Origin: Methanobacterium sp. MZD130B
Lineage (GTDB): Archaea; Methanobacteriota; Methanobacteria; Methanobacteriales; Methanobacteriaceae
Direction: 5' to 3'
DNA: 32,000 nucleotides
NCBI RefSeq assembly: GCF_047786645.1
Contig: NZ_JBLNNI010000012.1
Span: 46,286-78,285, forward strand
Positions 10,449 through 29,692 of this stretch are shown in pieces. Position 1 is the stretch's first letter, and every line of letters begins with the position of its first letter. Below the pieces are notes generated by a model. The model was not told the origin of the DNA. It did not search any database and saw nothing but the letters and a program-made list of their open reading frames with translations. Position numbers and translations under genes: made by a program.

Positions 10449-12143
10449 TTACATTGAATCTGGTGATTCTATTCCTAATAAATCTAGGCAATTTCTGATG
10501 GTTATTCTGGATTTATCAACTAATAATAATCTTAAGATTTCTTTTTCAGAACCAATTACTGGCACGGATTTGTAGAATTTGTTGAAAGCTCCCGCCATTT
10601 CCATGGCGTATTGGGCTATTGGATGGACTCTAAGGTCTTTTGCTGAATTTTCCACAATACTCGTGAATTTAGCAATGGTTTTAAGGAGGTCAATTTCCAG
10701 TGTATTAAGATCAGAAAAATCCAGTGTATCGATTTCTACTGATAATTTGTCTTTTGCTGATGCATTTTCCAATAATTTGCATGCTCTAGCATGTGCATAT
10801 TGTATGGATGCACATCCTCTCTCAAAGCTCAATGCTTCATCCCATTTAAACACTAAATGTTTTTCTGGAGATAATCGGGCTATAAAGTAACGTATAGCTC
10901 CAATACCTATTTTTTCGGCGATTTCTTTAGATAGAGATTCGTTTAATTCTGGCCTTCTATCTTCTAATTCACTTTGCGCCCTTGCGAATGCTTCATCCAT
11001 TAACTGATCCACGCTGATAAATACTCCTTTCCTAGTGGACATAGATCCTTCAGGGAGAGTAATGAACTCATAAAAAATTACTTCTGGTGTTTTCCCTCCC
11101 AAAAATTCCAATGCAATTGTAAGTTGATCAATAGCCAGCTTATGGTCAGAACCAAGAACATCTACCACCCAATCCGCTTGTTCAGATTTTTGGAGGTGAT
11201 AAGCGAGATCTCGGGTGGTGTAAAGAGAAGTTCCATCTGAACGGGTGAGAATTAGTTCTTTTTCAATACCATAATCTGTAAGATCTAGGTAACTCACATC
11301 GTTATGGCTAATATGATCTTTCAGATTTTCCATAATTAGGTTCACCGAACCATCCCTGATAAACTGACTTTCCCAAACGAAACGGTCGTGGGTGATCTGA
11401 AGGCGATGTGATGTTTCTTTCACTCCTTCCAAACACTTGTTAACCACGTTTTTAAACATGAATTCCAATTTTTCCGGGTTTTCTTCTTCATAAGTTCTTA
11501 GAATCGCACTTACCTGATTTTTAACATCAGGATCTGCTTTTAATTCCTGGTTAACCTCGAAATAAAGTTTACCTATAGCTATATCTGATTTTTCATCAGG
11601 ATTCAGATGGTAATCCAAGTTTTGAAGGCCCCATACGATCATTGCAATCTGTCGCCCCATATCATTCACGTAGTATTGTGTTTCTACTTGGAAACCAGCT
11701 GCTTTAAGGATACGGGCCAAAGAATCACCAATTATTGCATTACGAATGTGGCCTATGTGTAAAGGGCCGTTAGGATTGGCAGAAGTGTGTTCAAGAATCA
11801 CTTTAGTGTTTTTATCTTCAAGTGAACCATAATTTTCTTGTACAGATTTTAAAACCAACTTAAAAAAAGTTTCATTATCTAAAAAGAAGTTTAGATATGG
11901 GCCTATGGATTCTACCTTTTTGAATGGAGATTCTACATTCAATACTTCTTTAATTCGCTTTGCAATGTCAACTGGGGAACTTTTTCGCTGGCTTGCTATT
12001 TGGAATGCCACTGAAGTGGCCAGATCACCCATATTGGGATTGGGGGGTTGTTCAAATGCGATATCTTCAATTACTTCCCATTCTAGGGATTTCAATGCCT
12101 TTTCAACTGAATTACGGGCATTTTTTTCCAGAATTCTGTACAT
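10449..12143 (-). CDS. argS: Arginine--tRNA ligase
   Basis: 564 aa. Class I HIGH motif ([12 protein letters not shown]) and an anticodon-binding C-terminal domain ending in M. AGGTGA SD. Confidence 0.95.
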
Positions 12144-12719: not shown

Positions 12720-14383
12720 TAAACCACCCAATCTAAAATGGCTCCTTTATCTGCAGAGCTTACTAATTTACTATATCGTGATAACCATCCTTTTAATTTT
12801 TTTTCAGGGTGTTTTACTTTACTAAACCTTTTCTGGATTTCTTCCTCTTCTAACATTATTTCCAGTTTCCTGTTCGGTATGTCAATTTTTATTATGTCTC
12901 CGTTTTCAACAATAGCGATTGGGCCATTTGCCATGGCTTCTGGAGAAACATGACCTATGCATGGTCCTCTAGTACCGCCAGAAAATCTACCATCAGTAAT
13001 CAGCGCAACTGAGTCTAATCCTCTTCCAGATATGGCTGAAGTAGGGTTTAACATTTCCCTCATTCCAGGACCTCCTTTGGGACCTTCATAACGGATAATG
13101 ACTACATCACCATTTGTGATCTTGTTTTGAAAAATGGCTTGCACACATTCTTCTTCACTGTTATAAACTTTGGCTGGACCTTCATGTATTAACATATCTT
13201 CAGTAACAGCAGCTTGTTTAACAACAGAGCCATTGGGAGATAAATTGCCTTTAAGAACTGCAATACCTCCTTCACTGTGCACCGGATTGTTAATTGGGCG
13301 GATAACCTGGTCATTTTTGACTCTAGCAGCACTGATATTTTTTTTCAAGGATTGTCCAGTACAAGTTAGATTTCCTCCTTTGATTTCATCTTCTAGAACC
13401 TTTAAAATCGCAGGTATGCCTCCTGCTTTGTCTAAATCCATCATTGTATGGCTTCCGGATGGACTTATAGCAGTTAAATGAGGTATTTTTCGACTGAGTT
13501 CATCAAAAATGTCTAAATTAATTTTAACTCCTTTATCAGATAGTTCATGGGCTATGGCGGGTAAATGAAGGGTGGTGTTACTGGATCCTCCTAGGGCTAG
13601 ATCAACAACTACTGCATTATAAAATGCGTCTTGGGTCATAATCATGGAGGGGGTGATGTTTTTTTCCACCAATTCTATTATTTTTTCTCCGGATTCCCTG
13701 GCCATCTGGATCTTCTTAGAATCCACTGCATGAGTAGTTGCACAGTAGGGTAGGCTCATTCCCATAGCTTCAGTAAGACATGCCATACTGTTGGCGGTGA
13801 AAAGACCAGCACACGATCCTGCTCCAGGACAAGCGCAGCGTTCCAACTCATCTAATTCTGTTTCACTCATATTTCCTGCTGAAACTTTTCCCACACCTTC
13901 AAAAACATTAATAAGATCCACAGCTTCACCTTTGTACTCTCCAGGTAGCATTGGACCACCAGTAACTACAATAGCAGGAATATCTAGCCGGGCCGCACCC
14001 ATAAGCATTCCTGGGACAATTTTATCACAAGTTGGTAAAAGAACCAAGGCATCCAAGCTATGGGCTTGCGCCATACTTTCCACGGTGTCAGCTACAATTT
14101 CACGGCTGGCCAGGGAATAACGCATTCCCTCATGGTTCATGGCGATTCCATCACAAATAGCCATGGTGTTGAATTCGAAGGGAACGCCTCCGGCTTGACT
14201 TATCCCAAGTTTAACTGCATTTGCAATCTGTTTTAAATGAATATGTCCTGGTACTATGTCTGTAAAACTGTTAGCCACTCCTATAAATGGTTTTTCCATC
14301 TCGGCATCAGTCACGCCGCATGCTCTCAAAAGGGAACGATGTGGGGCCCGCTGCATTCCCTTTTTTATTTTATCACTTCGCAT
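12719..14383 (-). CDS. ilvD: Dihydroxy-acid dehydratase
   Basis: 554 aa. N-terminus [18 protein letters not shown] and the Fe-S cluster cysteine regions (CDKIVPG, CPGAGSC). Confidence 0.95.
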
Positions 14384-18367: not shown

Positions 18368-18409
<42 letters not shown>

Positions 18410-18423
18410 TTAGGAGATCAATT

Positions 18424-19209
18424 ATGGCGGAAGTTATAGCAATTTTAAATCAGAAGGGAGGTTGTGGTAAAACCACCACTGCAGTTAATCTTTCTACTTC
18501 ATTAGCACTTTATGGAAAGAACATATTGGTTATAGACATGGATCCTCAAGCTAATGCTACCACTGCATTTGGTTTGGAGAAAAATGAAGATAATTCAATA
18601 TATCGAGTTTTAACAGGACAACAAACTCTGGATGAGGCTATTGTTGCAACTAAAATATCAGGATTAGATCTTCTTCCCAGCCACATCTCTCTGAGTGGTG
18701 CCGAAATCGAACTTAGCAAGGATATAGGATTTCCATTTATTCTTAAAGAGACTATGGATGATGTTCAGGAGAATTACGATTATATTTTTTTGGATGTGCC
18801 GCCTTCCTTAGGTATACTGACAATAAATTCATTAGTAGCTGCTGATAGTGTCATAATTCCAATTCAAGCTGAATTTTATGCATTAGAAGGAATGGCTGAT
18901 CTGTTAGATGCCATGAACTTAGTGGAAACTCGTTTAAACAGTCCTTCACCCATCAAAGGAATCTTAATCACCCTTTATGATTCTCGAACTAGGTTAGGTA
19001 GGGATGTTTACCAGAATGTAAAGCAATTCTTTGGTGAGACAGAGTATATCTTTAACACAACGATCCCTCGTAATGTGAAGCTGGCTGAAGCACCTAGCCA
19101 TGGCAAACCATGTGTAATTTATGATGAGGAATGTGTTGGAACTGAAGCATATAATGACCTTGCCAAGGAAATTTTAACAATGAACGGGCAAGGAACGGAG
19201 GAAGCATAA
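18424..19209 (+). CDS. parA: ParA/Soj/SegA-type partition ATPase (deviant Walker A)
   Basis: 261 aa. Deviant Walker A NQKGGCGKTT, MDPQ motif and Walker B IFLDVPPSLG. No N-terminal HTH extension, so a small type Ib/chromosomal class. Its stop overlaps the next start (TAATG). Confidence 0.9.
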   Translation: MAEVIAILNQKGGCGKTTTAVNLSTSLALYGKNILVIDMDPQANATTAFGLEKNEDNSIYRVLTGQQTLDEAIVATKISGLDLLPSHISLSGAEIELSKDIGFPFILKETMDDVQENYDYIFLDVPPSLGILTINSLVAADSVIIPIQAEFYALEGMADLLDAMNLVETRLNSPSPIKGILITLYDSRTRLGRDVYQNVKQFFGETEYIFNTTIPRNVKLAEAPSHGKPCVIYDEECVGTEAYNDLAKEILTMNGQGTEEA

Positions 19210-19601
19210 TGACTCCATCAAAAAAGAGTGAAAAAGCATTAGGTAAGGGATTAGACGCTTTAATTCGTAAAGAAAAATCAGAATCTACCGTAAATACGAA
19301 AAAATCTCCTATGAAGGGGAACGTTTCGATTAAAGGTTCTGCTATAGAAAAACCAAAGACAAGAAAAGTCAGGAAAACTCAAGAAGATCCTTACAAAATG
19401 ATTTTTGAAGGTGTTGTACTAGAAGTTCGCAAGAATCCGCGCATATCCCTTTGGTCAGCAAAATCCGCAGCCGTTTTTAGATTTTTAAAAAAAACTAAAC
19501 CTGCATTTAGTATTAGCAAAGAGGCGTCAGTGCTTATTGAAGAAGCCGTGCAACAGAAGTATCCTGAAATCTGGGAATTGTTTGAAGACGAAGAATTTTA
19601 A
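19209..19601 (+). CDS. Small partition-adaptor candidate (SegB / mini-ParB-like): ParB-type N-terminal peptide, basic linker, putative RHH C-terminus
   Basis: 130 aa, translationally coupled to parA with a GGAGG SD. Residues 10-19 ALGKGLDALI resemble the conserved N-terminal GLG(K/R)GLxAL(L/I) peptide of bacterial ParB/Spo0J. No ParB/Srx CTPase or HTH region is visible. The C-terminal RISLWS / AKSAAVFRFLKKT / SKEASVLIEEAVQQ pattern fits a strand-helix-helix layout. Confidence 0.6.
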   Translation: MTPSKKSEKALGKGLDALIRKEKSESTVNTKKSPMKGNVSIKGSAIEKPKTRKVRKTQEDPYKMIFEGVVLEVRKNPRISLWSAKSAAVFRFLKKTKPAFSISKEASVLIEEAVQQKYPEIWELFEDEEF

Positions 19602-19608: not shown

Positions 19609-19819
19609 AAATTTTCTCATGAGGTTACGATTATCAGAGAAAAAAATCTTTCAATATCCTGTTCAACATATTAATTAATAGCTATACTACTTTAAAAATT
19701 GATTAACTATTTGACACATTGATCTTGATAAAAGATGATTTTTGATTTGAATATCACAAAAATTGATTTTCTATTGTTGCGTCTAGAACTCTAATCAAAA
19801 ATATGAAATGACATGAATT

Positions 19820-19861
19820 ATAACATATAAGTTATAACTAATAACTTAGAACTTATAAGAC
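19820..19861 (+). repeat. Six consecutive 7-bp units ATAACAT-ATAAGTT-ATAACTA-ATAACTT-AGAACTT-ATAAGAC
   Basis: Read directly. The last 28 bp match the 18382-18409 array at 24 of 28 positions in the same orientation. Contains the 10-bp palindrome AGTTATAACT. Overlaps the last codons and stop of the radical SAM gene on the minus strand. Confidence 0.6.
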
Positions 19862-27927: not shown

Positions 27928-28506
27928 TTATAAAACACCTTTGGTGCTGGGCATTTGTTCGTGAACCACGCGAGTTGCGTCAAACAGAGCCCGAGCCAAT
28001 GCTTTGAACAGAGCTTCTACTTGATGATGGTCATTTTCCCCTTCACAGCGGGCATGAAGGTTTATTTTCCCGGTTTGGGCAAAAGACTCAAAAAAATGAC
28101 TTACATTTTCAGTACTGAGATCTCCTACTTTATATTGGTGAAAATTCATGTCTAAAACAGTGTAATTCCGACCAGAGAGATCTATGGCCACCATTGCCAG
28201 AGATTCATCCATAGGTATCAGTGCATGGGCCATTCGCCTGATTCCTTTTTTATCTCCCATGGCTTCTTGAAGGGCCTCTCCCAGCACTATTCCCACATCT
28301 TCTATTGTGTGGTGGTCATCTATTTCAATATCCCCGATGGCTTCAACTTTAAGATCAAAGAGGCTATGTCTGGCAAATGATTCTAGCATATGGTTGAAAA
28401 AATGGATTCCTGTTTCCACACTGTATTGGCCGGTACCATCGATATTTAGTTCAAGACATATTTCTGTTTCAGAAGTTTTCCTTTGTATTTTACTTTTTCG
28501 CATCAT
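27928..28506 (-). CDS. hisB: Imidazoleglycerol-phosphate dehydratase
   Basis: RKTSETEI start region and the DxHHxxE motifs (DDHHTIED, NDHHQVEA). The ORF track starts at 28515, but the GAGGG SD abuts that ATG. The ATG at 28506 has a 9-nt spacing. The 5' end overlaps the ferredoxin gene. Confidence 0.9.
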   Translation of the reverse strand: MMRKSKIQRKTSETEICLELNIDGTGQYSVETGIHFFNHMLESFARHSLFDLKVEAIGDIEIDDHHTIEDVGIVLGEALQEAMGDKKGIRRMAHALIPMDESLAMVAIDLSGRNYTVLDMNFHQYKVGDLSTENVSHFFESFAQTGKINLHARCEGENDHHQVEALFKALARALFDATRVVHEQMPSTKGVL

Positions 28507-28696
28507 TTGGGGCATCCCTCACTATAGTAATTGCATCTTCCGGGCATTTAGAAGCACAAATAGTGCACAAGTGACAGTAACGGAGATTAGTGGCCACGGC
28601 ATTCTGATTCACATTCCAGATCTTGGGGCCTTTGGGGCATGATTCTTTACAGATCCCACAACCAGTGCATTTTTCTTCATCAACATCAATCCTCAT
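28490..28696 (-). CDS. 2x[4Fe-4S] ferredoxin (68 aa)
   Basis: Two complete CxxCxxCxxxCP motifs (CTGCGICKESCP and CHLCTICASKCP). GGAGA SD upstream. Confidence 0.85.
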   Translation of the reverse strand: MRIDVDEEKCTGCGICKESCPKGPKIWNVNQNAVATNLRYCHLCTICASKCPEDAITIVRDAPNDAKK

Positions 28697-28712
28697 GAAA
28701 TCTCCTTTACTA

Positions 28713-28733
28713 ATAACTTATAACTTATAATTA
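28713..28733 (+). repeat. Iteron copy ATAACTT-ATAACTT-ATAATTA (contains exact 20-mer ATAACTTATAACTTATAATT)
   Basis: Read directly. Lies 17 nt upstream of the ferredoxin ATG (28696, minus strand) in the ferredoxin-hisB promoter region. Confidence 0.7.
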
Positions 28734-28805
28734 CTAATTCATTTTTTAAAATTTGATTTAATTTACGTTTGAAACATTTAATCTTATTAACGCTCTTATG
28801 GAGTT

Positions 28806-28833
28806 ATAAGATATAACTTATAACTTATAATTT
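28806..28833 (+). repeat. Iteron copy ATAAGAT-ATAACTT-ATAACTT-ATAATTT (contains exact 20-mer at 28813-28832)
   Basis: Read directly. The 20-mer starts exactly 100 bp after the 28713 copy. The array ends 21 nt downstream of the stop of the minus-strand flavoprotein gene (stop at 28855-28857). Confidence 0.7.
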
Positions 28834-28854: not shown

Positions 28855-29448
28855 TCACTGGTATTTTTCCAAAAATTCATGAAACCTCTTAATTGTTTTA
28901 TTGAGACTTCTGAATCCTTCTTCATCTTCTTTAACACCTTTTAAAGTGTCATGAGACCAAAAATTTGCTCCAAGATTGGAACCGAAAGGCCCCCCACTAA
29001 CTGGTATGGCACCATTTAAAATGAAAAAAGTCATTATCTGTTGAATTGCCAATTCTTGACCTCCAATACGATCTCCACCAACAGTGATTGCCATTCCCAC
29101 TTTATGTTTAAGGAAGTCGATGTCAGCTGCTGCCGCCGCCCTGGTACGGTCCATGATTGCTTTGATCTGGGCAGTGACACCACCATTATAAACTGGGGTG
29201 GCTATTATAATTCCTTGAACATCTTTAAAAATCGGATAAAGTTCATACATGTCATCTTTCAAAATACATTCTTTTTCACGTATGCAATAGTCACAGTTTC
29301 GGCAGGGGCTTATGTTTTTCCCCCGAACCGTGAATAATTCGGTTTTGCAACCCCTTTCTTCCATCAAATTCAGAGCTTCTCTTAATACATGTTCTGTGGA
29401 CTGTTTCCTAGGACTCCCGGATATTCCTAAAATTGTCTTGTTCACCAT
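28855..29448 (-). CDS. Iron-sulfur flavoprotein / NADPH-dependent FMN reductase family
   Basis: GISGSPRK FMN-binding N-terminus and the compact cysteine cluster CRNCDYCIREKEC typical of Isf proteins. The start is set at ATG 29448 after a GGGGGA SD. The ORF track's GTG at 29460 is less likely. Confidence 0.8.
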   Translation of the reverse strand: MVNKTILGISGSPRKQSTEHVLREALNLMEERGCKTELFTVRGKNISPCRNCDYCIREKECILKDDMYELYPIFKDVQGIIIATPVYNGGVTAQIKAIMDRTRAAAAADIDFLKHKVGMAITVGGDRIGGQELAIQQIMTFFILNGAIPVSGGPFGSNLGANFWSHDTLKGVKEDEEGFRSLNKTIKRFHEFLEKYQ

Positions 29449-29692
29449 TAATTCCCCCACATAATGATTATTTGAATTTATTAAGTTTTAACTTTTTTCT
29501 CATCAACATTAAATTTTTATTGCCTTTAACTTAACAATTTTAAAAAAGTACATCTAATTTAATTCCAAAATCAGAAATCTGTTTTTATTTTGTTGGAAAA
29601 ATCTAGTAATTATAGAATTATAGATTTTTTTAATGTTTATTTAAAGAATAATGTAAAAAATGAATTAAGAGCAATAAAAAGAAAAGTTCTTA

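Follow-up and report, generated by a model that had tools for sequence, protein, structure and literature searches.

Period-7 arrays of TTATAA(C/G) at segAB and in the fdx-hisB spacer of Methanobacterium as candidate SegB-binding sites

In this study, we report the analysis of a 32,000-nucleotide stretch of DNA from Methanobacterium sp. MZD130B (contig NZ_JBLNNI010000012.1, positions 46,286 to 78,285), referred to as the window, which carries three exact copies of a 20-mer, ATAACTTATAACTTATAATT. The copies were found to be parts of arrays of a 7-bp repeat, which stand on both sides of segAB, a gene pair encoding a ParA-family ATPase and a 130-aa homologue of SegB, and again in the spacer upstream of the ferredoxin and histidine biosynthesis genes fdx-hisB. 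We consider it likely that the 20-mer is the core of a centromere-like SegB site of the segS type, made of at least three contiguous 7-bp units. Judged from the sequences, and by analogy with the SegB sites described from Sulfolobales, the arrays are most likely bound by SegB. To our knowledge, SegB-binding sites have been defined by experiment in Sulfolobales only, and the arrays would be the first to be predicted for a methanogen.

Heptad arrays in the window

Searching the plus strand of the 32-kb window for ATAACTTATAACTTATAATT returned three exact copies in the same orientation, at the positions where a sequence-only reading of this DNA had placed them (Table 1). When up to three mismatches were allowed, 14 overlapping matches were obtained against 0.02 expected in dinucleotide-preserving shuffles, which upholds the earlier claim that the recurrence is not due to chance. 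The repeat unit underlying the 20-mer is a 7-bp heptad, TTATAA(C/G), in which a palindromic hexamer, TTATAA, is followed by a single C or G. The 7-bp phasing that had been noticed was confirmed by a phased-array scan and by Tandem Repeats Finder, which agreed on exactly four period-7 arrays in the 32 kb, here named A1 to A4. Markov simulations gave 0.07 arrays of three or more units per window, and none of four or more. The two-heptad motif TTATAASTTATAA, at up to one mismatch, was observed 12 times against 0.09 expected, with every match falling within A1-A4. Altogether, the four arrays comprise 17 heptads spread across ~10.5 kb. The inventory of the sequence-only reading, which held the copies at the parA (segA) promoter and in the fdx spacer, had missed A2, the array that follows the 130-aa gene. 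Its pair of copies 100 bp apart in the fdx spacer stands as the offset between the two exact 20-mers; the start-to-start distance of the arrays A3 and A4 themselves is 93 bp.

Array A1 occupies positions -44 to -17 relative to the segA ATG, with the TATA-like CTATAAATA directly 5' and the ribosome binding site (RBS) AGGAGAT 3' of it. Array A2 is located ~215 bp beyond segB, between the convergent 3' ends of segB and of a gene with radical S-adenosylmethionine (SAM) and helix-hairpin-helix domains, the last codons of which it overlaps. No promoter is needed between two convergent gene ends, and the arrays are therefore not promoter elements as such. The remaining two arrays share the spacer between the stop codon of an FMN-reductase gene (28855) and the ferredoxin ATG (28696), for which the length of 158 bp and the distance of 17 nt from the proximal 20-mer to the ATG had been read correctly before. 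Within it, A3 lies 14 nt upstream of the ferredoxin ATG, the gene being on the opposite strand, and adjoins the RBS, and A4 lies 23 nt past the FMN-reductase stop codon. Other promoters in the 32 kb, including those of the MTD, Fae-Hps and aminoacyl-tRNA synthetase genes, are without the motif. Sequence likeness among the array copies ends at the array borders; the flanks are unrelated, in agreement with the sequence-only reading. Each of the six reading frames of a triple heptad is interrupted by a stop codon, and the site is therefore confined to intergenic DNA. In a compact genome, this obligate intergenic placement forces the arrays into promoter or terminator spacers.

The SegB homologue and its Soj-like partner

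The 130-aa protein encoded directly after segA is a SegB homologue, and its sequence identifies it as a ribbon-helix-helix (RHH) centromere-binding protein. A profile built from 22 homologues matched the S. solfataricus SegB entries PDB 7DUV (E=8e-11) and 7DV2 (E=7e-8) over the C-terminal 65-90 residues. The signature KNPRISLWS is invariant across the 22 homologues, its first S standing where the published SegB signature, K/R-D/N-P-K/R-I-G/T-V/L-W-S, has G/T (PMC12139799). In the AlphaFold2 model, a disordered basic linker (residues ~21-58) is followed by helices that match the order a1-b1-a2-a3-a4 reported for S. solfataricus SegB (PMC8682754). Searches of the 130-aa protein against Pfam and NCBIfam gave no family match, and a Foldseek search of the AlphaFold2 monomer against PDB gave no match below E=1. 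The mean pLDDT (predicted local distance difference test) score of the model is 61 and the RHH fold is dimer-dependent, so the monomer search is uninformative and the homology argument rests on the sequence-profile match to SegB. SegB homologues in Methanobacteriales, found by BLAST, have already been listed in the literature; no DNA site for them was given in the literature searched. Public records name the SegB-family protein 'AAA family ATPase' (NCBI, UniRef) or, in one JGI record, 'outer membrane biosynthesis protein TonB'; both names are misannotations, as the protein has no ATPase domain.

The segA and segB genes overlap by 1 nt, and the pair was present in all relatives looked at, with segB directly after the ParA-family ATPase gene. 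The segA product is a Soj-like member of the ParA family, being 46-51% identical to Soj of Bacillus and Clostridia. Its matches in PDB to bacterial ParA/Soj (E ~1e-58 to 1e-62) were far stronger than that to SegA of S. solfataricus (7DUT, E=1.5e-18). At the other end of the SegB homologue from the RHH domain, the N-terminal peptide ALG[K/R]GLDALI is invariant in the 22 homologues (ALGKGLDALI in the window, within residues 1-24, encoded at 19209-19280). For comparison, parB genes standing beside Soj-like parA genes were fetched and translated, and the peptide proved to be the N-terminal motif of their ParB products, as in B. thuringiensis Spo0J (VAKGLGRGINVFF), P. megaterium ParB (MAKGLGKGINALF) and Vescimonas ParB (AKGLGKGLAALLG). 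The 11 residues SALGRGLDALI are identical between several SegB homologues and the N-terminus of ParB from Parabacteroides distasonis. The N-terminal tail of ParB stimulates the Soj ATPase, and the ParB-like N-terminus of the SegB homologue fits its Soj-like partner.

Membership of the 130-aa protein in the bacterial ParB (Spo0J) family fails, given its lack of a Pfam or NCBIfam match and a likeness to ParB that is limited to the extreme N-terminal peptide. For this ParB-like N-terminus, a phmmer search of the 30-aa N-terminus against PDB, an NCBIfam search, a tblastn search of the 24-aa consensus against plasmids and a literature search on 'GRGL' were all without result. A chimeric query with residues 1-9 of S. 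solfataricus SegB, which is a weak test, gave no alignment to the ParB-like motif, a weak indication that Sulfolobus SegB is without it. Its sequence suggests that the Methanobacteriaceae protein combines the DNA-binding domain of SegB with an activator peptide of the ParB type, suited to a Soj-type motor.

The DNA of the window is chromosomal and comes from a Methanobacterium species that is often found in anaerobic digesters. Contigs of up to 1.95 Mb (e.g. GCA_050950625.1) encode the 130-aa protein, and the neighbourhood holds genes for aminoacyl-tRNA synthetases, IlvD, MTD and Fae-Hps. The fdx and hisB genes overlap by 26 nt (28490-28515), a pairing kept across the Methanobacterium relatives examined, and the gene pair with its spacer is syntenic across these relatives. 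The A/T-rich stretch between A3 and A4 (Table 1) is, judged from its sequence, the putative core promoter of fdx-hisB, and a comparable A/T-rich stretch was seen in relatives. The window opens with two tRNA genes (1-63, cut by the window edge, and 140-211). As Rfam finds no other family in the 32 kb, a non-coding RNA in the fdx spacer was rejected.

Table 1 Heptad arrays and associated features of the window, with the role predicted for each array
Feature	Position	Strand	Description	Predicted role
A1	18380-18407	+	4 heptads, TTATAAC TTATAAC TTATAAT TTATAAG; holds 20-mer 18382-18401	Predicted segS-like SegB site and autoregulatory operator
segA/parA	18424-19209	+	Deviant Walker-A ParA/Soj-type ATPase, 261 aa; Pfam AAA_31, CbiA, ParA, MipZ	
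segB homologue	19209-19601	+	130 aa; ParB-like N-terminal peptide, basic linker, C-terminal ribbon-helix-helix domain	
A2	19818-19859	+	6 mixed-orientation heptads, TTATAAC ATATAAG TTATAAC TAATAAC TTAGAAC TTATAAG	Predicted segS-like site without promoter context
hisB	27928-28515	-	Imidazoleglycerol-phosphate dehydratase; Pfam IGPD	
fdx	28490-28696	-	68-aa 2x[4Fe-4S] ferredoxin; Pfam Fer4	
A3	28711-28731	+	3 heptads, TAATAAC TTATAAC TTATAAT; holds 20-mer 28713-28732	Predicted SegB site, placed as an operator at the fdx-hisB promoter
TATA-like A/T-rich stretch	28742-28754	-	AAATTTTAAAAAA (gene strand), between A3 and A4; read from sequence	
A4	28804-28831	+	4 heptads, TTATAAG ATATAAC TTATAAC TTATAAT; holds 20-mer 28813-28832	Predicted distal SegB site
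FMN reductase-like gene	28855-29460	-	NADPH-dependent flavoprotein; Pfam FMN_red; 3' end bounds the 158-bp spacer	

Conservation, distribution and alternative explanations

Loci encoding SegB homologues at 80, 73, 63, 63 and 55% identity were fetched for comparison. Arrays were present upstream of segA and downstream of segB in all five, and each of the three loci that reach the fdx-hisB spacer had two or three arrays there. The three array positions (before segA, after segB and in the fdx spacer) are thus kept in relatives whose SegB is from 80% to ~50% identical. Upstream of segA in most species, a TATA-like AAATATTTATA abuts the first heptad, and RBS and ATG come after the array; in one subgroup the array is found ~95 nt upstream instead. 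Position 7 of the heptad is C or G in 79% of 296 units from 27 loci, in DNA of only ~37% GC. A contig with 49% GC has kept two arrays upstream of segA, and the motif is therefore not a by-product of AT richness. In M. ferruginis (AP027738.1, L009), segB is separated from the radical-SAM gene by an insertion of three genes, namely an unknown, an amine-oxidase-like and a GtrA-like one. One array stands on each side of the insertion (10460-10487 and 12929-12970), which looks like a split or a duplication of the downstream array. In the 80% relative (L007, 19332-19520), the fdx spacer has three arrays, a ~74-bp segment of array and adjacent spacer being tandemly duplicated.

When the fdx spacers of 11 species were aligned, mean column identity was 52% and the invariant columns clustered in the proximal and distal arrays. 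Seventeen of the 20 aligned positions of the proximal array are invariant, the rest of the spacer having diverged, and this array adjoins the fdx RBS in 11/11 species, 10-20 nt from the ATG. The distal array also occurs in 11/11 species, although in one of them (L079) it is interrupted and falls below the threshold of the array scan. In seven of the 10 species that allowed the measurement, the two arrays start 93-96 bp from one another, or about nine helical turns. So regular a placement, with the two arrays bracketing the A/T-rich TATA-like stretch, is also what would be seen if SegB bound A3 and A4 purely as operators, repressing fdx-hisB as a small regulon with no role in segregation, and the RHH partition proteins omega of pSM19035 and ParG of TP228 are indeed known repressors. 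This version, which is nested within SegB binding, is possible, and we hold it to be somewhat doubtful: the fdx-spacer site always lies ~6-13 kb from segAB and on the same side, as expected for a centromere cluster, a functional tie between the ferredoxin/histidine operon and segregation is not evident, and operator and centromere functions normally coincide in RHH systems. A segS-type centromere that includes the fdx-spacer pair remains the preferred reading.

The occurrence of the exact 20-mer was determined in a genome scan with one genome per species, in which all counts are among the matches listed. At least 119 stretches carry it, and 39 of the matches listed are from Methanobacteriales. 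In Methanobacterium-like genomes, 16 copies were upstream of segA, seven in the fdx/FMN-reductase spacer and one elsewhere (23/24 at two loci). In Methanobrevibacter-like and some other Methanobacteriaceae genomes, other recurrent and conserved intergenic array sites were seen in a HAD hydrolase/GatA spacer in four species (L018, L037, L078, L119), and single or paired cases beside a pyridoxal phosphate-dependent enzyme (L024, L082), Usp (L071) and TruD (L129) and in a BacA/IlvE-like spacer (L080). These extra arrays at housekeeping spacers may be dispersed SegB sites or part of a wider regulon. A metagenome scan with the query TTATAASTTATAASTTATAA returned mostly unrelated heptanucleotide repeats of diverse organisms; about 10 of the 120 matches listed were Methanobacteriaceae-like, and nine of these show a segA or ThrRS neighbour. 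One Methanobrevibacter-like metagenome contig (L221:1760-2545, GC 27%) holds 14 triple-heptad boxes (TTATAAG TTATAAG TTATAAT and variants) in the position of A2: the ~800 bp of non-coding sequence that separate the radical-SAM gene from segB carry one box every 50-60 bp. By its sequence, this cluster has the layout of a textbook centromere. Five triple-heptad boxes ~54 bp apart were also seen at a contig end of Methanobrevibacter sp. 87.7 (L084).

Some of these data would suit a different, unlinked regulator acting family-wide on segAB, fdx-hisB and Methanobrevibacter housekeeping operons, with SegB binding elsewhere. Arrays A1 and A3 overlap the predicted TATA-to-start region of their operons, the arrays of Methanobrevibacter-like genomes occur at several other conserved intergenic sites near metabolic genes, and the Sulfolobus SegB motif TCTAGASTCTAGA had no match in the window at up to two mismatches. 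We nevertheless regard such a regulator as unlikely. The architecture of the arrays, a 6-bp palindrome plus S (G or C) at a 7-bp period with a triple repeat before segA, is that of experimentally defined SegB sites, and arrays stand on both sides of segAB in every relative compared. Neither A2 nor the 14-box cluster by segB is at a promoter. The SegB beta-strand is invariant in the homologues, as is the DNA motif, and no other DNA-binding gene is conserved in the neighbourhood. The sequence-only reading had proposed that the factor of the par cassette also binds the copies in the fdx spacer, which would then be secondary centromere sites or form a small regulon. This proposal is indirectly supported by the homology to SegB, the 7-bp phasing of known SegB sites and the family-wide recurrence of the arrays.

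Among the matches listed, the non-archaeal exact 20-mers were mostly from Bacteroidota and lay inside simple (ATAACTY)n tandem repeats. In Flavobacterium, Chryseobacterium, Cytophagales and Ignavibacteria, intergenic (ATAACTC / ATAACTT / ATAATTC)n runs were seen, sometimes of more than 10 units (L016, L019, L042, L049, L055, L091, L107, L125 and others). The Bacteroidota heptanucleotide repeats are a separate phenomenon, unrelated to SegB. These repeats, which account for many of the non-archaeal matches listed, and the resemblance of TTATAA to a TATA box are what would speak for a strong-promoter module like the transcription factor B recognition element (BRE) and TATA box, a neutral heptanucleotide microsatellite or the remnant of a miniature inverted-repeat transposable element (MITE), all of which are highly improbable: the remaining promoters of the 32 kb lack the motif, A2 is flanked by convergent gene ends that call for no promoter, the exact matches listed in Methanobacterium-like genomes are almost all at two loci, and position and unit number are kept across species whose spacers are otherwise scrambled. 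A general TATA module and a dispersed repeat, the two outcomes that the sequence-only reading had named as its own possible undoing, were rejected on these grounds and, for the MITE, on the unrelated flanks of the copies, the likeness of which ends at the heptad arrays.

Predicted function and comparison with known partition systems

In the function that we propose for a segS-type site, each TTATAA hexamer would be bound by one RHH dimer of SegB, and an array would thus be coated by 3-6 dimers. The flexible N-terminal tails of the bound SegB, carrying ALG[K/R]GLDALI, would stimulate the nucleoid-bound Soj-like ATPase, by which this region of the chromosome would be moved or positioned. The four arrays together would form a multi-site partition zone of ~10 kb. 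At A1, which overlaps the segA core promoter, SegB would probably regulate its own operon, and at A3 and A4, which bracket the putative core promoter of fdx-hisB, its occupancy would probably also damp that operon. By analogy with the RHH partition proteins omega and ParG, the centromere and operator readings need not exclude each other.

Several points weigh against a centromere function of the arrays. Binding of the arrays by the SegB of Methanobacteriales is a prediction, and the structure search with its monomer model found nothing. The ATPase is much nearer to bacterial Soj than to Sulfolobus SegA. Both A1 and A3 are in classical operator positions, which fit a pure transcription factor as well as a centromere, and the further conserved intergenic sites in Methanobrevibacter-like genomes are fitted equally by a regulon or global regulator. 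As the counts rest on the matches listed, arrays may also occur outside the ~10-kb zone. In the profile alignment, two of the three base-contacting residues of S. solfataricus SegB are changed (K52 to R78 and K75 to S101), and the recognition chemistry of that protein is therefore not simply transferable. The K-to-R change in euryarchaea has been noted previously (PMC8682754), and an altered specificity within a conserved binding geometry is plausible.

On the reading of the arrays as SegB sites, (TTATAA-S) repeated at least three times would be a candidate SegB site for the whole Methanobacteriaceae, and a general rule for SegB sites is suggested, namely 6-bp palindromes at a 7-bp period with one G or C between them. 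To this family belong Methanobrevibacter, a genus of the gut, and the principal methanogens found in anaerobic digesters. Predicted to be new here are the recognition sequence, the obligatorily intergenic sites, the conserved secondary pair on the promoter of a metabolic operon and the mosaic protein machinery. A site that is barred from genes must share space with promoters, and a link between segregation and gene expression could be tested at fdx-hisB. A more far-reaching picture, which we put forward as speculation and think rather improbable as a whole, is that of a hybrid partition machine in rod-shaped archaea, composed of a Soj ATPase, an RHH SegB with an acquired ParB peptide and a multi-array (TTATAA-S)n centromere, in which the array pair at fdx-hisB is a regulatory output coupling SegB occupancy, and with it the state of segregation or the cell cycle, to the ferredoxin/histidine operon.

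Three known systems were compared with that of the window. In the bacterial ParABS system (Soj/Spo0J/parS), as here, several centromere sites lie within ~10 kb of the par operon, and the resemblance extends to the ATPase, with its 46-51% identity to Soj, and to the ParB N-terminal motif. Unlike ParB, the SegB homologue of the window has neither the helix-turn-helix nor the CTPase domain and binds DNA, as its homology predicts, through an RHH domain. The sites are heptad arrays here and a 16-bp palindrome in parS, and the CTP-dependent clamp sliding and spreading of ParB would not be expected here.

In the type Ib omega/delta system of plasmid pSM19035, RHH dimers bind contiguous 7-bp heptads, direct or inverted, with one dimer per heptad. 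The heptad arrays are found in the promoters of several operons, where they are both operators and centromere sites, and the partner ParA ATPase is activated by the N-terminal tail of the DNA-binding protein. The mixed C-type and G-type heptad arrays of the window, at two promoters and one non-promoter site, are alike in arrangement. The heptad of omega is WATCACW, unlike that found here, and the system is carried on a plasmid, whereas that of the window is chromosomal. With the RHH fold of the window protein inferred from SegB homology, the likeness to omega-type systems is, by analogy, a resemblance in mechanism and not membership.

The closest comparison is with SegAB and segS of S. solfataricus and S. 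acidocaldarius. In S. solfataricus, the site defined by chromatin immunoprecipitation sequencing (ChIP-seq) is TCTAGA-S-TCTAGA, two 6-bp palindromes at a 7-bp period with S being G or C, and ~83% of the sites are intragenic (PMC12284271). The crystal structure of S. solfataricus SegB has one RHH dimer per half-site (PMC8682754). The segS site of S. acidocaldarius comprises three copies of a 7-bp repeat, [AGNGTNN]3, at -25 to -6 of segA (PMC12139799). The 2025 ChIP-seq study found no convincing site for the Sulfolobus motif near Thermococcus segAB and suggested that a different motif is used there (PMC12284271).

With these systems, the window shares a ParA-family ATPase gene followed by a small SegB gene in one operon, and a SegB in which a variable basic linker joins a conserved N-terminal tail to the RHH domain at the C-terminus, which bears K/R-D/N-P-K/R-I-x-V/L-W-S. 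It also shares a site design in which 6-bp palindromes or 7-bp repeats recur every 7 bp around a central S, here (TTATAA-S)3-4, a triple repeat just upstream of the segA start (-44 to -17 in the window) and further chromosomal sites elsewhere. The differences lie in the recognition sequence, which is TTATAA here and TCTAGA or AGNGT there, in two of the three base-contacting residues of SegB, and in the placement of the sites, necessarily intergenic in the window and mostly intragenic in Sulfolobus. At least four full-length arrays are found here within 10 kb, as against one. The ATPase is Soj-like and not SegA-like, and the N-terminal peptide of SegB is ParB-like. Finally, SegB has been associated with cells of coccoid shape (PMC12139799), but the methanogen of the window is a rod. 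A mosaic of bacterial and archaeal parts in rod-shaped cells is relevant to a recent proposal, by which SegB evolved for coccoid archaea.

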